In this document: positions 1 to 6,100 of the stretch, one piece after another
Layout of the letters: the number at the start of each line of letters is the position of its first letter
Numbering within the stretch: the first letter of the stretch is position 1
The notes under the pieces: model-generated
What the model was told of the DNA's origin: nothing
Database searches by the model: none
The model's input: the letters and a program-made list of their open reading frames with translations, nothing else
Source: a virus
Lineage: Duplodnaviria; Heunggongvirae; Uroviricota; Caudoviricetes
Strand: one strand, 5' to 3'
Length of the DNA: 30,556 nt
IMG/VR virus record: IMGVR_UViG_3300029886_000071
Program-made: the position numbers and the translations under genes

Positions 1-1
1 G

Positions 2-349
2 GATAAGGCGAAAAAGGTGCTGGCGCTGAAAGTGGATCCGGAGTCGCCGGAGTCTTTTATGTTACGCCCAAAACGTCGCCGCTGGGTTAATGAAAAGTAC
101 ACGCGCTGGGTTAAGACGCAGCCGTGTGCATGTTGTGGAAAGCCTGCTGATGATCCCCACCATCTGATAGGCCACGGTCAGGGGGGAATGGGTACAAAAG
201 CGCATGATCTCTTTGTGTTGCCTTTGTGCAGAAAGCATCACGACGAGCTGCATGCGGATACCATGGCATTTGAAGAGAAGTATGGCTCCCAGCTGGAGTT
301 GATATTTCGTTTTATCGATCGTGCGCTGGCAATTGGTGTGCTGGCCTGA
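2..349 (+). CDS. DUF968-like phage protein with Cys/His-rich HNH-like motif; probably 5'-truncated by the window edge
   Basis: Reading frame is open from the first bases of the window; translation contains CACCGKPADDPHHLIGHGQGG...CRKHHDELH; sits immediately upstream of the Q-like gene as in lambdoid prophages. The ORF track starts it at GTG 17. Confidence 0.5.
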   Translation, partial: DKAKKVLALKVDPESPESFMLRPKRRRWVNEKYTRWVKTQPCACCGKPADDPHHLIGHGQGGMGTKAHDLFVLPLCRKHHDELHADTMAFEEKYGSQLELIFRFIDRALAIGVLA

Positions 350-366
350 TTTTGTGGAGAAAGTTG

Positions 367-723
367 ATGCGTGATATGTATGAAGTAATGGATCGTTGGG
401 GAGCTTGGGCTGCTTCAGACAATAGCGGAGTGGACTGGCAGCCGATAGCGGCTGGTTTCAAGGGACTTTTACCTCATGGCAAAAAGTCACGGATTCAGTG
501 TGATGATGACGAAGGCATCATGATAGACAGTTGTGTGGCTCGGTTGAGAAGGTATAAACCAGAGGAATATGAGCTCATCATCGCCCACTTTGTTATCGGT
601 ATCTCATTACGCACTATTGCGAAGAAGAGAAAATGCTCTGATGGCACAATTAGGAAGGAACTGCAAACTGCAATGGGGTTTGTTGACGGCTGTTTAGCAA
701 TGTTAGCTTATAGTATGGCATAA
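367..723 (+). CDS. Putative late-gene antiterminator (Q-like, small phage-82-type) with C-terminal HTH-like region
   Basis: ORF 352..723; ATG at 367 preceded by GGAGA. Position upstream of the lysis cassette; C-terminal EYELIIAHFVIGISLRTIAKKRKCSDGTIRKELQ resembles a sigma region-4 / LuxR-type helix-turn-helix. Family assignment is from memory. Confidence 0.5.
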   Translation: MRDMYEVMDRWGAWAASDNSGVDWQPIAAGFKGLLPHGKKSRIQCDDDEGIMIDSCVARLRRYKPEEYELIIAHFVIGISLRTIAKKRKCSDGTIRKELQTAMGFVDGCLAMLAYSMA

Positions 724-1917
724 AAAATAAAATAGATTTACTGCCGATTTTTCAAAAAAGACTGGGAACTGTTTATATCCAACGTAAATAAGGCCTCCAT
801 AAAACATGGCTGATGCGAGATATTTAACAGTTCTCATCCTTTTTTTAGCTTTATCAATCAAACCTGTAATGCTACTCTTAATACTATCTGCATTATCTTT
901 GATTTCTTTATTTTCTTCAAACTTTAAATACTTATCGAAAGCGGACTCCACTCGAGAACGTAAGTTGTCGAATGTTTCATTGAATATCTCAATAGAAATG
1001 TAATTGACTTTTTTTATCATCCAAAGTCCTGCGATAATCAATATTGCCTCGGTTGTTTCATTAGCCTTCACTAAGCCACCAGCAGCTATTAATGCACCGG
1101 GAATAGTCAATGCTTTTGTCTGATTAGATGATATGAATTCGTTAATTTTACTCGTGAACTCAAGATTTTTCTCATCGAGTTCGTTAAGAATTTTATTTAC
1201 AGAAAACCTCTTTGTGTAAATCTCATATAGTTCATCATATTTTTTCCTGACGAGTTCAGTAGAGTTAAGCAAGTCAAAGAAATTGAACGTACCATTTGCT
1301 TTAAATACTTCGTTTATGGCTGAGCGTATAACGAGCTTGCGCTCGCTTTTGTGTAAATCATTGATTTTTATTGTGTCGAGAAGCTCCTTTATAATTTCAT
1401 ATTTAAGAGACGAGTTCGATAAGCGATTAATCTCGCTATATTGTAAAAAATGCGTGAGTTCGACTGTATAACTTTTGTCTTCATTGGTGAAAAATAAGAC
1501 AGAGCAGTCACTGTTATGATGATCAGCAATTAATGAAAGGATATCTTTCCACATAAAGAAAATATGGATTTTTTCGATGCTTTCATTCTTAGAAGTAGGG
1601 AGTATTAACGGCGTTCCGATGATATAATTTTTCGGAAGAGCGTTTTGGGTGTTTACTCTAGACCAAAAAGACTCAACATTCTCATAAATTATAGCGTCAT
1701 CCCAAGATGAAGCTTGGCGATCTAGCCAAATTTCATTATTTTCGATGCAGGTTGTTGCCTTTTTATAACCTATAGATTGTAACAGTCTAATTATTTCAGA
1801 ACTATTTACAATAACAATGCTTTCTTCAAGACTTATGACAGTGTAGTAGCCCTCAACTCTGCTTGAGGCTCCGTTAATAATCTGCGCTAATCTTGATAAG
1901 TCATCAGCAATTGTCAT
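703..1917 (-). CDS. Hypothetical protein with C-terminal hydrophobic helices (cargo gene B, downstream gene of a two-gene operon); candidate effector
   Basis: 404-aa ORF, AT-rich; start codon 2 bp downstream of the stop of the 1920..3095 gene on the same strand; hydrophobic segments ALTIPGALIAAGGLV, AILIIAGLWMI and YLASAMFYGGLIYVGY near the C-terminus; K/E-rich predicted helical region. Confidence 0.75.
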   Translation of the reverse strand: MTIADDLSRLAQIINGASSRVEGYYTVISLEESIVIVNSSEIIRLLQSIGYKKATTCIENNEIWLDRQASSWDDAIIYENVESFWSRVNTQNALPKNYIIGTPLILPTSKNESIEKIHIFFMWKDILSLIADHHNSDCSVLFFTNEDKSYTVELTHFLQYSEINRLSNSSLKYEIIKELLDTIKINDLHKSERKLVIRSAINEVFKANGTFNFFDLLNSTELVRKKYDELYEIYTKRFSVNKILNELDEKNLEFTSKINEFISSNQTKALTIPGALIAAGGLVKANETTEAILIIAGLWMIKKVNYISIEIFNETFDNLRSRVESAFDKYLKFEENKEIKDNADSIKSSITGLIDKAKKRMRTVKYLASAMFYGGLIYVGYKQFPVFFEKSAVNLFYFLCHTIS

Positions 1918-1919
1918 TA

Positions 1920-3095
1920 TTAGCTGTCTCTATATCTTTTGAGTTCATCATAATTTGCCTGACTCAATTTTATCACAATTTCGCATTTGTTGTCAGTGAG
2001 AATTACAGGCTTATTTGACTTTTCGTCTCCAATAGCTCCACGCATTATTTTCAACTTAAAATTATTGTCGTTATCTGCCACTTCAATTGTAAGCGCGCTT
2101 TCAGCTGCTTTAGGAGTTGGTTCAAATTGAGGGTCAATCTGGAAACCATTAAGATTAACAAAATCGACAAACGTTCCCTTACATTTGTGTGAATCAGTCA
2201 GGCATGAGTCAATTATTTTTGAAATATCCTCTATCTTAACGGACTTATTTCCGTGTTTATCTTTTGATTTTTTTTCCAGTAAGGATTTAACTTCGTTGTC
2301 AATAGTATCACGCAGTACACGACCGAGTGAGTTTTTACTAGCAAAAATATCTATAGCACTGAATAATTGCTGAATGCTTCTTTTATTGTCCGAATCATGT
2401 CGGCAACCTAATGAGTCTTTGAAAAAATCGCTTTTAGATTTACCTTGCAAGAAATGTACATATGAGTCACCCTTGTTTTCTGGATAACTGGCTTCGAATA
2501 AAGTTAAATCGAACATCGCAGCCTGCCGTAAGGCATCGGTATTAATTGGATTTAATCTTGTTGGGGTCAACTTATCCGAATCAAAGTCATAGGCGCTTTG
2601 TTTATCAACCATTACGATTAGAAGTTTCCCCAAATCCTCTGGTTCGGTAGACTTATAGTGGATGAAAACAACGCTCCCCCCCTGAAGTTGGGCAACTCTC
2701 GATTCGTTATTAGCATTATGTTTAAGCTTCTCTATTATAGCTCTAGATAAATCAATGAATTCATTATTTTTATTAATGTATTTTTTTAGGATCGTAGGAA
2801 TGGATGAAGGGTTGTGATCTGAGTCTAGGAAGTTATGAAATTTGTTTTTTCGGCTAAATTTTTTCTCAATTCTGGTTATGAATTCAGATGTGACTTCATT
2901 TTTTAGATCCCAAACTTCACCTAATCGATAATCAAATGCTCTTGAATCATTTTTTTCAAGATTTGCTGTTACAGCACCAATAGGAAAGTACGATTGTTTG
3001 CCCAGCACTACAACATGAGGCGTGGCACCGCATTTATCGCAAGCTACAGTTGGGTCGTCAAGAACATTGCCACATTCTAAACAAGTTATATCCAT
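1920..3095 (-). CDS. Zinc-ribbon protein with NdpA/YejK-like (NA37) nucleoid-associated domain (cargo gene A, upstream gene of a two-gene operon)
   Basis: 391-aa ORF, AT-rich; N-terminal CLECG...(12 aa)...CDKCG zinc-ribbon motif; motifs GGSVVFIHY and YVHFLQGKSKSDFFKDSLG match my recollection of the YejK/NdpA family ([31 protein letters not shown]). Confidence 0.75.
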   Translation of the reverse strand: MDITCLECGNVLDDPTVACDKCGATPHVVVLGKQSYFPIGAVTANLEKNDSRAFDYRLGEVWDLKNEVTSEFITRIEKKFSRKNKFHNFLDSDHNPSSIPTILKKYINKNNEFIDLSRAIIEKLKHNANNESRVAQLQGGSVVFIHYKSTEPEDLGKLLIVMVDKQSAYDFDSDKLTPTRLNPINTDALRQAAMFDLTLFEASYPENKGDSYVHFLQGKSKSDFFKDSLGCRHDSDNKRSIQQLFSAIDIFASKNSLGRVLRDTIDNEVKSLLEKKSKDKHGNKSVKIEDISKIIDSCLTDSHKCKGTFVDFVNLNGFQIDPQFEPTPKAAESALTIEVADNDNNFKLKIMRGAIGDEKSNKPVILTDNKCEIVIKLSQANYDELKRYRDS

Positions 3096-3212
3096 TATAT
3101 ATCCCGAATTATAAGAATGAATTTTTATGTGGCTGAAAATTCTATCAAAACACTAACGCGTACGCAAAAAGTATTGTATTGTGTTAAGAGTGGTTACTTC
3201 GCCACACAGCTT

Positions 3213-3245
3213 AAACCCGCCGTCGAGCGGGTTTTGTCGTTTCTG
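3213..3245 (+). terminator. Intrinsic terminator-like hairpin upstream of the holin gene; candidate tR'-type late terminator
   Basis: AAACCCGC-CGTCGA-GCGGGTTT stem-loop followed by TGTCGTTTCT on the plus strand. Confidence 0.4.
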
Positions 3246-3386
3246 GGCCTGGGGATTCGTTGGGCCTAGTCTATCCCGCAGTTATCCATTGGCTCGGCTT
3301 CTTTGACGTTTCCGCTTCTGATTTGCGGTACATGATGTTTCCTCAATTTGCACCTGCTGTATCAGCGAGGTGAGAGATAACTACAA

Positions 3387-3713
3387 ATGCCTCATAACCC
3401 AAATACTTGGCTGGAGTTGGTCCAGAGCTGGTGGCGTGGAGACACACCGCTGGGCGCAGTGATTATGTCGATCGTTATGGCTGGCTTGCGCATTGCCTAT
3501 TTTGGCGGTGGTGGTGGCTGGAAGAGAAAAACGCTCGAGATTTTGCTCTGTGGCGCTCTGACGCTGACCTTTGCATCCGCTCTTGAATATGTCGGATGGC
3601 CTAAATCGCTTTCTGTTGCCATTGGTGGTGGCGTGGGGCTGATCGGTGTCGATGCTATTCGTGGGGCTGCAATGCGAGTAATCGGTAACAAATTTGGTAG
3701 CTCGAAGGAGTAA
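3387..3713 (+). CDS. S: Holin, lambda S family
   Basis: 108-aa ORF with hydrophobic helices and charged C-terminus; pattern LRIAYFGGGGGW...ILLCGALTLTF parallels lambda S; directly upstream of the endolysin. Confidence 0.8.
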   Translation: MPHNPNTWLELVQSWWRGDTPLGAVIMSIVMAGLRIAYFGGGGGWKRKTLEILLCGALTLTFASALEYVGWPKSLSVAIGGGVGLIGVDAIRGAAMRVIGNKFGSSKE

Positions 3714-3716
3714 TTT

Positions 3717-4193
3717 ATGCAGGCACTAAATTCCCAGCGTAAAGCTTTCCTGGATATGGTGGCATGGTCAGAAGGAACGGATAACGGGCGACAACCGACA
3801 CGTAACCACGGTTATGATGTTATTGTTGGTGGCGAACTGTTCACTGATTACTCCGATCACCCTCGCAAACTTGTCACGCTAAACCCCAAACTCAAATCAA
3901 CAGCTGCCGGACGTTACCAGCTTCTTTCACGCTGGTGGGATGCTTACCGTAAACAGCTTGGCCTGAAAGATTTTTCTCCAGAAAGCCAGGACGCTGTAGC
4001 TCTGCAGCAGATTAAAGAGCGTGGTGCTTTACCGATGATTGACCGCGGCAGTATTCGTCAGGCAATCGACCGTTGCAGCAATATCTGGGCGTCGTTACCT
4101 GGTGCAGGTTACGGTCAGTATGAACATAAAATCGGTGACCTGATTGCCCGATTTAAAAAAGCTGGTGGGGTAGTAAATGAAGCTGAGATATAA
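3717..4193 (+). CDS. R: Endolysin, lambda R-type lytic transglycosylase
   Basis: Translation (QRKAFLDMVAWSEGTDNGRQPTRNHGYDVIVGGELFTDYSDHPRKLVTLNPKLKSTAAGRYQLLSRWWDAYRKQLGLKDFSP...) is near-identical to lambda R as I recall it; GGAG RBS. Confidence 0.92.
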   Translation: MQALNSQRKAFLDMVAWSEGTDNGRQPTRNHGYDVIVGGELFTDYSDHPRKLVTLNPKLKSTAAGRYQLLSRWWDAYRKQLGLKDFSPESQDAVALQQIKERGALPMIDRGSIRQAIDRCSNIWASLPGAGYGQYEHKIGDLIARFKKAGGVVNEAEI

Positions 4194-4569
4194 GCTGGTT
4201 ATTGTTGCCTTCGTTGTTAGCGTCATTGGTTCCTTCATCTGGTCTGCTGGACATTACTACAGCAAATATCAGCACGAAAAGGAGCGTGCTGATGAGGCTG
4301 TACGAAATGCTGAATCAGCAACTGCCATTACCCGTAACGTTCTGCAATCACTGCAAATCATCAATACAGTTATAGAGGCTAACCAGCATGCAAAACAGCA
4401 GATCGCACTGGAGTCACAGAGAACCCAGGAAGATATCAAAGTGGCTGTTGCGGATGATGATTGTGCTTCAAGTCATGTGCCTGCTGCCGCTGCTGACCGG
4501 TTGCGGAAGTACGCGAACAGTTTACGTGCCGGTTCCGGCGGTACCGCTGCCAACAAGCCTGACCACTGA
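4177..4569 (+). CDS. Rz: i-spanin (Rz-like)
   Basis: 130-aa ORF overlapping the end of R; N-terminal TM helix (LVIVAFVVSVIGSFIW) then coiled-coil-like periplasmic domain; lambdoid position after R. Confidence 0.8.
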   Translation: MKLRYKLVIVAFVVSVIGSFIWSAGHYYSKYQHEKERADEAVRNAESATAITRNVLQSLQIINTVIEANQHAKQQIALESQRTQEDIKVAVADDDCASSHVPAAAADRLRKYANSLRAGSGGTAANKPDH

Positions 4570-4711
4570 AACGCCCCAGCCAGTCATTCCCGACCCGCTG
4601 ACCTATGGGGCCAGTCTGGATCTGAATGTGAGCCTGCTTTCGGCGCTGGGCCAGTGCAACATCGACAAGGCCAGTATCAGGAAGATAGAAACGTCACGCA
4701 ACTCACAGTAG
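4454..4711 (+). CDS. Rz1: o-spanin lipoprotein (Rz1-like), overlapping the 3' end of Rz in another frame
   Basis: ORF 4388..4711 contains MMIVLQVMCLLPLLTGC lipobox-type signal followed by a proline-rich sequence (PVPAVPLPTSLTTETPQPVIPDP) typical of Rz1. Confidence 0.6.
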   Translation: MMIVLQVMCLLPLLTGCGSTRTVYVPVPAVPLPTSLTTETPQPVIPDPLTYGASLDLNVSLLSALGQCNIDKASIRKIETSRNSQ

Positions 4712-4750
4712 CCATTACAAAGCTCATCTGCGGGTGGGCTTTGTAATGGC

Positions 4751-5050
4751 TTATTCGTAGTTGTCACCAGGGAAGTATTCCTGAAACTTTGATTTTGGGA
4801 GCTGGGTTTTCGCGAAGTTCGCAAGCCTTCCTCTTGTAAGCATGTAGTCACACCCACCTTCTTGTTTGAGAAGGTCACCAGCTAATGTCCGATACACAAC
4901 GTCACTTCGCAAAATTTCAATGGTGGAATTCCTGATGAGAAATGTTTCACACATCGGGCATCTAATTAACCAAGCGGTATCACGGTTCTGCCAGGTCGCA
5001 TCTGAATTGCAAGCCGGGCAGCATTTCTGATCTTCTTGTCCTATGACCAT
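4751..5050 (-). CDS. Small hypothetical zinc-ribbon protein (moron candidate) between lysis and packaging genes
   Basis: ORF 4751..5056 on the minus strand; second ATG (5048..5050) has better RBS spacing; CCPAC...(18 aa)...CPMC motif; opposite strand to all flanking phage genes. Confidence 0.5.
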   Translation of the reverse strand: MVIGQEDQKCCPACNSDATWQNRDTAWLIRCPMCETFLIRNSTIEILRSDVVYRTLAGDLLKQEGGCDYMLTRGRLANFAKTQLPKSKFQEYFPGDNYE

Positions 5051-5129
5051 TGTCATGCTCTCGCATAGTGAAGGAATTTTCAGATTAACTCATTTTCAGA
5101 CGCATCGTAATGGCTTAAGGAAACAATTA

Positions 5130-5480
5130 ATGCCACCACGTACACCAAAAGCCTGCCGCGTTCGCGGTTGCCGCCATACCACAACTGACCCGTCAGGCTA
5201 TTGCGAAAGCCACAAAAGCGAAGGCTGGAAGCAATACAAACCAGGCCTGTCACGTCATCAGCGCGGTTACGGTTCGAAGTGGGATACCATCCGTGAACGT
5301 GTGCTGAAGCGTGACAAAGGCCTGTGTCAGTTATGTCTGCGTTCTGGTGTGGTGCGTGAGGCGAAAACCGTTGACCACATCATCCCTAAAGCGCATGGCG
5401 GCACTGATGCTGACAGTAATCTGCAGAGTCTGTGCTGGCCGTGCCATAAGGCGAAGACGGCCCGTGAACGGTTAAAGTGA
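5130..5480 (+). CDS. HNH homing-type endonuclease associated with the terminase
   Basis: ORF 5043..5480; ATG 5130 has AAGGA RBS; cysteine/histidine motifs (CRVRGCRH...CESH, DHIIPKAHGG, CWPCHKAK); position just upstream of terminase as in HK97-like phages. Confidence 0.8.
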   Translation: MPPRTPKACRVRGCRHTTTDPSGYCESHKSEGWKQYKPGLSRHQRGYGSKWDTIRERVLKRDKGLCQLCLRSGVVREAKTVDHIIPKAHGGTDADSNLQSLCWPCHKAKTARERLK

Positions 5481-5506
5481 TAATAATTCTCAACTGTCTG
5501 AGGGGA

Positions 5507-5567
5507 GGGGCGGGTCAAATCCCTGTGACCTGACGTCTTCCGGACTGCCCGCCCCATCGTTTTTTTA
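5507..5567 (+). other. GC-rich 8-bp inverted repeat (GGGGCGGG ... CCCGCCCC) followed by a T7 run; putative cos-region structure and/or terminator
   Basis: Seen in the HNH-terminase intergenic region, where HK97-type phages carry cos. Confidence 0.3.
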
Positions 5568-5605
5568 TACCCGCGAAAAATGAAATTTAACCAGGAGTGC
5601 CGCAT

Positions 5606-6100
5606 ATGGCTGGAACGGCGGGGCGTTCCGGGCGTCGCCCCAAGCCAACGGCGCGCAAGGCGCTGGCCGGAAACCCCGGCAAGCGAGCCCTGAACAAAGA
5701 TGAACCCGTTTTTACGCCCATCAAAGGTGTTGAGCCACCGGAGTGGTTCGCTGAAGAAGAGCTCCCTCTCGCCACGATCATGTGGCAACTGACAACCAAA
5801 GAACTCTGCGGTCAGGGCCTGCTGTGCGTGACTGACCTCGCAGTGCTTGAGCGGTGGTGCGTAGCCTATGAGTTCTGGCGACGTGCTGTGAAAAATATTG
5901 CCAGACAGGGCAACACCATCACCGGTGCAATGGGCGGCATGGTCAAAAATCCGGAGCTGACCGCCAAAAAAGAACAGGAGTCCGAGATGAGCAGTACGGG
6001 GGCAATGCTCGGACTCGACCCCAGCAGCCGCCAGCGTCTGATTGGCCTGGCGGGGCAGAAGAAAGCCACTAACCCGTTTCTGAAAATTATCGAATCATGA
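5606..6100 (+). CDS. Terminase small subunit
   Basis: ORF 5597..6100; ATG 5606 preceded by AGGAG; immediately upstream of and overlapping the large terminase gene; basic N-terminus. Confidence 0.8.

Follow-up and report, generated by a model that had tools for sequence, protein, structure and literature searches.

A predicted DS-1 defense operon lies reversed between antiterminator gene Q and a putative Q-dependent late promoter in a tailed phage

Results

Gene order between Q and the holin gene

The window (the whole stretch of DNA analyzed here, 30,556 nucleotides, from a virus of the class Caudoviricetes; IMG/VR record IMGVR_UViG_3300029886_000071) opens, according to the map of open reading frames (ORFs), with a fragment of a DUF968 gene on the plus strand (17..349). 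The plus-strand gene for antiterminator Q follows (367..723), and then two minus-strand cargo genes, the distal one at 703..1917 (404 amino acids) and the proximal one at 1920..3095 (391 amino acids). The 3' ends of Q and the distal cargo gene converge and share 21 nt. The first late gene, on the plus strand at 3387..3713, encodes a holin (Pfam PF05106, E = 5.7e-25; RefSeq annotation), and the endolysin gene (3717..4193, plus strand) and Rz/Rz1 come next. This leaves a gap of 291 bp at 3096..3386, which an earlier note on this DNA had singled out as the only non-coding stretch between Q and the holin gene; on the ORF map, too, no other DNA there lies outside the genes listed. Two short plus-strand ORFs are contained in the gap (3117..3269, 50 amino acids; 3181..3306, 41 amino acids). 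A search of Rfam with positions 1..6000 at a permissive threshold returned no relevant match.

The Q protein, 118 amino acids long, is a member of the Q21/933W family and of the short, QuuD-like type (Pfam, RefSeq). It matches PF06530 over its full length (E = 2.7e-47; 115 of 118 profile positions covered), and its RefSeq label is "antiterminator Q family protein." Apart from PF06530, the Pfam scan gave a weak match to an ECF sigma family and returned no other Q family. The match to the Q21 structure 6P18 is weak and distant (E = 1.3e-3). Because PF06530 is the family named Q21/Q933W in the preprint on the Q21 structure (10.1101/651190), this Q is not of the phage 82 type, as had been supposed.

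The cargo genes form a predicted DS-1 operon on an AT-rich cassette

Both cargo proteins score above the curated cutoffs of NCBIfam release 20.0 (2026). The proximal protein matches NF053868, "DS1_1, nucleoid-associated anti-phage protein" (451 bits; cutoff, 330), and the distal protein matches NF053869, "DS1_2, anti-phage protein" (DS1_2_antiphage; 375 bits; cutoff, 315). DS1 names are given to both in recent RefSeq annotation, and the proximal protein, which is YejK/NA37-like, also matches the Pfam family NA37 (E = 1.2e-23). PADLOC 2023 gave no match for either protein. A defense system with a YejK nucleoid-associated domain was validated experimentally in the DefensePredictor paper (PMC13092281), and from the names we infer that this is the system called DS1 in NCBIfam. 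The two minus-strand genes are a predicted DS-1 anti-phage defense operon, with DS-1 protein 1 encoded by the proximal gene and DS-1 protein 2 by the distal one.

The operon is carried on an inserted AT-rich cassette whose approximate limits, 688..3150, are given by breaks in homology and by G+C content. Homology to other group-A Q loci stops at ~685..690 and restarts at ~3147..3153, and G+C content in 200-nt windows is 0.32 to 0.40 between 601 and 3200, compared with 0.47 to 0.55 in the adjoining windows. The left junction falls within the last ~12 codons of Q, and the right one falls immediately before the late cassette described below. As in a moron, the elements on either side of the insertion point are adjacent in related phages (1720a-02 and five other loci), and the base composition of the cargo is unlike that of the flanking phage DNA. 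A terminator belonging to the cargo operon, another moron feature, was found on neither strand at its 3' end. The 4.8-kb region is identical or nearly identical in 44 complete E. coli genomes.

The promoter of the operon is predicted to lie on the minus strand within 3108..3148, where two candidates lie in DNA that is cassette specific, that is, not conserved among different cargos. One is the minus-strand TATAAT proposed in the earlier note, which we located exactly at 3113..3108. Only 12 nt separate it from the ATG at 3095, and a transcript starting ~7 nt downstream of the hexamer would therefore have a leader of ~6 nt without the GGGA Shine-Dalgarno-like motif. The window as a whole holds no excess of TATAAT (13 copies; 10.7 ± 3.4 expected). 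The other candidate, TTGATA-16-AAAAAT at 3148..3121, is the sole promoter-like site that the scan found in the gap, and its leader would be ~20 nt long and include the GGGA ribosome-binding motif. On the plus strand, the simple sigma-70 consensus scan called no promoter in 3096..3212.

A conserved block at 3153..3245 has the anatomy of a late-promoter cassette

To the right of the cargo, homology between loci begins at ~3153 and delimits a conserved cassette, 3153..3245. We gathered 128 loci by exact match to a 19-nt core of this cassette; they come mostly from E. coli and Shigella prophages, and conservation of the core itself cannot be judged from a sample chosen in this way. Just upstream of the cassette is an A-rich stretch (3143..3152, plus strand; A fraction of 0.60, compared with 0.38 further upstream, in 41 otherwise unrelated flanks), which from its base composition might serve as an UP element.

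Within the cassette is a hexamer, TATTGT at 3177..3182 on the plus strand, whose family pattern is TAnnnT. Positions 1, 2, and 6 are T in 39/41, A in 41/41, and T in 41/41 flanks, respectively, while the inner three vary freely. This conservation pattern typifies -10 elements of sigma-70 promoters, and we assign the hexamer as the putative -10 of the late promoter, pR'. The corresponding -35 matches the consensus poorly (CTAACG at a distance of 18 bp or TAACGC at 17 bp).

Between the -35 and the -10, where the annotated Q-binding element (QBE) of phage 21 also sits, comparison of the loci reveals a palindrome, GCGTACGC, followed by AAAAA (3158..3170, plus strand). Six types of this element occur (GCGTACGC, GCGGTCCGC, GCGGGCCGC, TTTACGTACGTAAA, TTTACAATCGTAAA, and TGTTATAACA). 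All are palindromic, and in all six the dyad center lies 15 to 15.5 bp upstream of the start of the -10. Across 45 distinct Q proteins, the type of palindrome matches the type of the Q helix-turn-helix without exception, and three groups of Q proteins that share the same N-terminal half have different helix-turn-helix regions and different palindromes. Physical linkage, and not selection, could account for part of this association. That every type has kept its dyad symmetry nevertheless points to a protein that binds DNA as a dimer, for which Q is the obvious candidate, and the element at 3158..3170 is most likely bound by Q.

Downstream of the -10 come the discriminator and initial transcribed region (3183..3212, plus strand), assigned by conservation and by homology to lambda and phage 21. 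No other part of the cassette is as well conserved in BLAST hits not anchored there; its first 19 nt are the core by which the 128 loci were chosen. The start site is predicted to lie near 3189. A homolog of the lambda/phage 21 pause element, TAAGAGT at 3185..3191 (plus strand), aligns with AACGAT of lambda and resembles the SDPE of phage 21, TAAGCTG. It straddles the predicted start site and does not have T at hexamer position 6. The alignment to lambda runs through phage phi467, which encodes a lambda-family Q (PF03589) and in which AAAGATGGGTAACTTCG leads into downstream sequence and a hairpin shared with this locus. By way of phi467, the transcribed region of lambda from +1 to +17, including the pause site, aligns to this locus without gaps (AACGATGGGTTAATTCG in lambda; TAAGAGTGGTTACTTCG at 3185..3201 here). 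We take the lambda start to be that of 6S RNA, at 44,587, and the known pause at C16/G17 presumably falls on the last two bases of AACGATGGGTTAATTCG, which would place the homologous pause site at 3200/3201 (plus strand) in the window.

The pause spacing is not the same in the three phages. The start of the -10 and the start of the pause element are 8 bp apart here, compared with 12 bp in lambda and 13 bp in phage 21. This short spacing puts the pause-element homolog across the predicted start, a geometry that does not sit well with the late-promoter reading. Possibly the pause is captured very early, with release at about +12/13; it is also possible that the start site is elsewhere than the rule predicts or that TGTTAAGAG works as a second, extended -10. 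Two other assignments of the -10 were considered. A -10 at 3172..3177, the first copy of TATTGT, would restore lambda-like pause spacing but was rejected, as this hexamer is not conserved (the equivalent is TTGGTT in DLP12-type loci, TATGTC in 1720a-02). A model with the A-tract at 3165..3170 as the -10 and TAnnnT as the pause element was judged unlikely because its position 6 (3170) is A in 31/41 flanks and because there is no conserved -35 upstream, where the DNA is cassette specific.

The cassette ends in a tR'-like intrinsic terminator (3213..3245), and the plus-strand hairpin and T-run that the note had described there were confirmed by both scan and fold. The hairpin, AAACCCGC-CGTCGA-GCGGGTTT at 3213..3234, has an 8-bp stem with five G-C pairs and a 6-nt loop and is followed by the U-rich tail TGTCGTTTCT. 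It is the top-listed terminator-like site in 300..3800 (6 such sites; 2.6 ± 1.4 expected) and the centroid structure in folding. Among 43 variants the stem is kept and the loop is variable, and hairpin and T-run are present in all except the divergent L074, L122, and L125. In a 15-sequence alignment, neither the terminator nor a small 5' hairpin (3190..3205) showed compensatory changes, because the sequences are too conserved. An intrinsic terminator thus stands shortly downstream of the putative pR' and ahead of the late genes, which start with the holin gene at 3387. The leader from the terminator to the holin gene, including the holin ribosome-binding site (3246..3386, plus strand), is 95% identical in SfII, 88% in SfIV, and ~74% in PA-2/DLP12-type phages. 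A motif scan found no promoter-like or terminator-like sites in it.

The space between Q and the cassette is a slot for mostly reversed cargo

Q was found upstream of the cassette on the same strand in 102 of the 128 loci. Cargo separates the two in 96 of these 102 loci, with a size of 0.6 to 2.9 kb, and is missing from the remaining 6. The cargos fall into 26 sequence clusters, all of them AT-rich (G+C, 0.31 to 0.42), and the main ORFs are on the minus strand in 25 of the 26. The cassette is on the late-gene side of the cargo in every locus.

BLAST searches gave the same picture. Approximately 3147..3235 is common to many phages, and in the Stx and cdtI phages the match stops at the hairpin. 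In the Stx2 phage 1720a-02, which has no cargo, the cassette begins 9 nt past the Q stop codon and ends at the same hairpin, followed by co-oriented genes and, further downstream, stx2. Here the cassette is not directly downstream of Q; 2.4 kb of reversed cargo stands between. Differing minus-strand genes likewise separate Q from the cassette in SfII, SfIV, cdtI, PA-2, and DLP12 of E. coli K-12. Immediately past the Q stop codon, the DNA is cassette specific and differs with every cargo type, each cassette replacing the last ~12 codons of Q, and neither a plus-strand promoter-like site nor a conserved sequence was found just downstream of Q. SfV has the flanking DUF968 and lysis genes in common with this locus but a different Q, and it is absent from the BLAST hits to 3096..3386, so the cassette goes with Q and not with the holin gene.

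The cassette is present in 3,721 of 5,426 complete E. coli genomes. Cargo in the slot with matches to known or candidate defense families includes PDC-S20, HEC-04/OLD-like ATPase-Toprim, PDC-M53A, and a distant relative of DS-1; many other cargos match no family.

Discussion

A late promoter beyond the cargo

We consider it highly probable that 3153..3245 is the Q-dependent late cassette of this lambdoid prophage and that the DS-1 operon has been inserted between Q and this cassette, from which it diverges without being crossed by late transcripts. The pR' of the cassette would be a sigma-70 promoter with its -10 at 3177..3182 and a weak -35. It would fire constitutively in the lysogen, where RNA polymerase without Q would stop at tR' and release a transcript of ~50 nt ending at 3238..3245. 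After induction, Q would bind the palindrome, load onto the paused polymerase, and carry it past the hairpin, giving read-through into the holin, endolysin, Rz, and structural genes. The cargo promoter, at the right end of the inserted DNA, would diverge from pR' at a distance of roughly 75 to 90 bp, and the DS-1 operon would be expressed in the lysogen from its own promoter, insulated from the late switch. Since the cargo is upstream of pR' and divergent from it, late transcripts should not cross it.

Of the two layouts offered in the earlier note, the one with the late promoter in 3096..3212 is the one that comparison of about 130 related loci supports. The central claim of the note, that the cargo operon and the late transcript oppose each other, is not borne out, nor is the layout with a promoter next to Q and antisense transcription through the cargo; the cassette lies beyond the cargo.

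A possible addition to the late-cassette reading concerns early rather than late transcription. During lytic growth, readthrough of early rightward transcription past Q would be antisense to the cargo, and in the lysogen the cargo mRNA would in turn be antisense to the 3' part of Q. The arrangement at the junction is suggestive, with the tail-to-tail overlap of the two genes, no terminator-like hairpin on either strand, and a fold no better than that of shuffled sequence (z = +0.9). Phage 21 is annotated with an antisense promoter, paQ, inside Q, and the orientation bias, with 25 of 26 cassettes reversed, would at least agree with selection. Because early transcription must pass Q and meets no terminator at the junction, some convergent interference from early transcripts is plausible. 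Against this, cassettes L083, L094/L111, and L123 appear by eye to carry a junction hairpin, and if these hairpins are real, readthrough is not a general feature. On balance, we lean somewhat against this addition. Cargo antisense RNA in the lysogen may also damp leaky expression of Q, in the manner of the paQ antisense RNA of lambda.

Three rivals to the late-cassette reading itself fare much worse. The hairpin at 3213..3245 could instead end the early, pR-derived Q transcript, with the true late promoter in 3246..3386. Conservation of 3246..3372 in SfII, SfIV, and PA-2/DLP12-type phages would fit, but the Stx phages, cdtI, and 1720a-02, which have the same type of Q, match only up to the hairpin and have unrelated DNA beyond it. 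The TAnnnT hexamer and the Q-linked palindrome are both upstream of the hairpin, the scan of the proposed region was without a promoter-like site, and the annotation of phage 21 puts the terminator downstream of pR'. We regard this possibility as very improbable.

It is even harder to believe that the conserved block is a regulatory region of the cargo, for example, a CRP site, and not an element of late transcription. This idea has a basis in the PA-2 record J02580, where the sequence corresponding to 3189..3209 is annotated as a CRP-binding site of the porin gene lc, and the PA-2/DLP12 type indeed reads TGGTT-N6-TCACA. However, the block accompanies 26 unrelated cargos and persists where a phage has no cargo, and the right half-site is CCACA in this window. 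A CRP site belonging to one cargo would, in addition, leave the TAnnnT pattern, the terminator, and the link to Q type unexplained.

Least credible is a late promoter next to Q, firing antisense through the cargo operon and silencing it during lytic growth. In its favor, pR' does come straight after Q in lambda and phage 21, and the junction of Q with the cargo shows no detectable terminator. This layout is nevertheless very unlikely, because every locus has the cassette on the late-gene side of its cargo (what comes directly after Q in cargo-less relatives stands here at 3153..3245, beyond the cargo) and because the DNA after Q varies with the cassette and has no plus-strand promoter-like site.

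Comparison with known late switches

A close counterpart of the late cassette is that of phage 21 (annotated in OL657228; structural study by Yin, Kaelber and Ebright 2019), whose Q also belongs to PF06530. In the locus coordinates of OL657228, the Q stop codon is at 1932, the -35 at 1939..1944, the QBE, two direct 8-bp repeats, at 1947..1962, the -10 at 1962..1967, the start site at 1974, the pause element (SDPE) at 1975..1981, and the terminator at 1976..2023, ending at +50. Both cassettes are ~90 bp long, have the Q-linked element between the -35 and the -10 and a terminator within ~50 nt of the (here predicted) start, and are followed by late lysis genes. The short leader that the earlier note thought unusual is therefore normal for the PF06530 family, as the annotated distance from start site to terminator in phage 21 is ~50 nt. 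The two also differ. The QBE of phage 21 is a direct repeat with 8-bp subsites abutting the -10, whereas the element here is a palindrome ~15 bp upstream of it; the pause-element homolog is closer to the -10 here; Q is 118 rather than 162 amino acids long, with a weak sequence match (E = 1.3e-3); and the phage 21 cassette follows Q directly, while 2.4 kb of cargo intervenes here.

The layout of the locus, which the note had set apart from lambda and Stx phages, is already known. DLP12 (qsr') of E. coli K-12, with quuD, a reversed nmpC, and essD, has the same cassette core and terminator, and PA-2 has a reversed porin gene, lc, in the same slot. In both, a cargo gene on the minus strand, which has a promoter of its own, lies between Q and the cassette, and the holin gene follows; PnmpC has been demonstrated to be an active promoter (PMC11677980). 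In the record of K-12 strain HMS174, the predicted start maps to ~576,452 and the end of the stem to 576,498. SfII, SfIV, and cdtI also have reversed cargo in this slot. DLP12 and PA-2 differ from the phage studied here in that their cargo is a porin and not a defense operon, their Q is ~50% identical to this one, their palindrome is of the TTTACGTACGTAAA type, and their holin is of a different class. The cargo here is a recently described defense system in a known arrangement.

In lambda, Q is of a different family (PF03589), no cargo lies between Q and pR', and the pR' leader is 194 nt long; there is resemblance in the transcribed region, as described above.

Stx phages with this type of Q (1720a-02, Stx2a_1447, and Stx1 phages) have the same cassette directly downstream of Q. 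The note contrasted this locus with Stx phages, in which cargo is co-oriented with the late genes. In the Stx phages of this Q type, stx and the other cargo genes run in the late-gene direction and follow the terminator, which makes them Q dependent, while the cargo here is upstream of the promoter and reversed. The ~50-nt RNA predicted here has a parallel in StxS, a small RNA that is made constitutively in the lysogen from pR'-tR' of the Sakai Stx phages (PMC7547250), as both would be short lysogen RNAs from an antiterminated late promoter. They are not the same RNA, since StxS is processed by RNase E from a leader of 258 nt that belongs to a different type of pR' (PMC7547250). Literature searches found no mapped start sites for the DLP12 or Stx versions of the cassette.

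A cargo slot bounded by Q and the late promoter

Known defense hotspots of phages resemble this locus in having a fixed slot between conserved phage genes that accepts many alternative defense cassettes. They are found in another phage type and another slot; the one described here reaches from the 3' end of Q to the late promoter, and its cargo shows a strong orientation bias. The Q-cassette cargo slot is not described in PMC11364771 (Tai). The range of cargo that the slot takes up as a hotspot and its orientation bias may be new, as may the replacement of the last ~12 codons of Q by each cassette and the dyad form of the putative Q site.

These features can be combined in a single scheme, which we consider rather unlikely as a whole. 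QuuD-type Q proteins would bind the dyad as dimers, the gap between Q and the dyad would be the cargo slot, and reversal of the cargo would be selected. The dyad, centered ~15 bp upstream of the -10, would be occupied by a symmetric dimer, in contrast to the tandem protomers of Q21. The slot would amount to the few base pairs from the last Q codons to the dyad, filled by at least 26 cassettes, 25 of them reversed. If this scheme is true, reversal would be selected since it keeps the cargo outside the Q-controlled unit, and cassettes without a terminator, this one included, would send antisense transcription into Q, helping the lysogen to hold the late switch off.

For annotation, the practical gain is that the late promoter and terminator can be placed within a few bases, and the defense operon can be read as a probable lysogen-expressed unit outside the late switch. 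Given the presence of the cassette in 3,721 of 5,426 E. coli genomes, one mapped start site and one tested Q site would annotate thousands of prophages. The position of cargo relative to the cassette suggests a simple rule for predicting the timing of its expression: cargo upstream of pR' is reversed and would be Q independent, as with defense genes and porins, whereas cargo downstream of tR' is co-oriented and Q dependent, as with Shiga toxin. The slot between Q and the cassette also offers a cheap hunting ground for new defense systems. Its contents include DS-1, PDC-S20, OLD-like, and PDC-M53 defense candidates and, in addition, porins.

Diversity of cargo between Q and the late cassette

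Across 96 related loci (L003 to L129), the slot equivalent to positions 724..3150 of the window, which lies between the antiterminator gene Q and the late cassette, is occupied by at least 26 unrelated AT-rich cassettes. Reversed orientation was found for 25 of 26 slot cassettes. Matches of these cassettes include PDC-S20, an HEC-04/OLD-like ATPase-Toprim, PDC-M53A (SfII), and a distant relative of DS-1, the gene pair carried by the window; the porins nmpC/lc are also among the slot cargo. When cassette representatives were scanned against NCBIfam, 7 of 10 had no family match.

The cargo cassette has its left junction within the Q gene, approximately 12 codons ahead of the Q stop codon (685..723 in the window), in the window and the loci compared with it, and the C-terminal tail of Q differs with each cargo type. 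The distal cargo gene of the window (703..1917, minus strand) overlaps Q (367..723, plus strand) by 21 nt. By eye, a G+C-rich hairpin with flanking T and A runs is apparent at the convergent Q/cargo junction of three other cassettes (loci L083, L094/L111, and L123), where it could serve as a bidirectional terminator. The DS-1 cassette of the window has no such G+C-rich hairpin at this junction.

A palindrome linked to Q type

The element of the late cassette that is tied to the type of Q (3158..3165 in the window, and its equivalents in other loci) is palindromic in all six types. In phage 21, by contrast, the annotated Q-binding element (QBE) is a direct repeat. This difference in sequence symmetry suggests that short QuuD-type Q proteins bind in a different mode from that of phage 21.

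The initial transcribed region

At its 5′ end (3190..3205 of the window), the predicted short late RNA is expected to fold into a small hairpin (GUGGU/GCCAC). The hairpin is conserved, and no covariation was found in it. In the 1986 GenBank record of phage PA-2 (J02580), a CRP-binding site is annotated at 1531..1551, corresponding to approximately 3189..3209 of the window; here this stretch is interpreted as the late promoter's initial transcribed region. At the half-site, the PA-2/DLP12 type has TCACA but the window has CCACA.

Phage phi467, which encodes a lambda-family Q (PF03589), shares its initial transcribed region and its terminator (approximately 1490..1570) with the Q21-family cassette of the window, but the DNA upstream of them differs. 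This combination places a mosaic joint inside the late promoter region. The same late cassette is also present in Klebsiella phage ST846-OXA48phi9.1, where it adjoins a reversed two-gene cargo (23..1415, minus strand). One protein of this cargo weakly resembles KwaB of Kiwa, at 25.6 bits, just below the cutoff of 26.3. The terminator of the Klebsiella phage is a different hairpin, located a few bases further downstream.

Other features of the window and its relatives

Directly after Rz1, an open reading frame of 101 amino acids (4751..5056, minus strand) has weak zinc-ribbon or Lar-like matches that fall under the Pfam cutoffs; DLP12 carries a reversed bor gene at the same relative position. 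In several E. coli genomes (hits H38 and H52 to H58), O103:H2 strains among them, the match to the 4.8-kb region of the window is split in two, and a transposase of the IS1 or IS3 family is annotated beneath the split matches.
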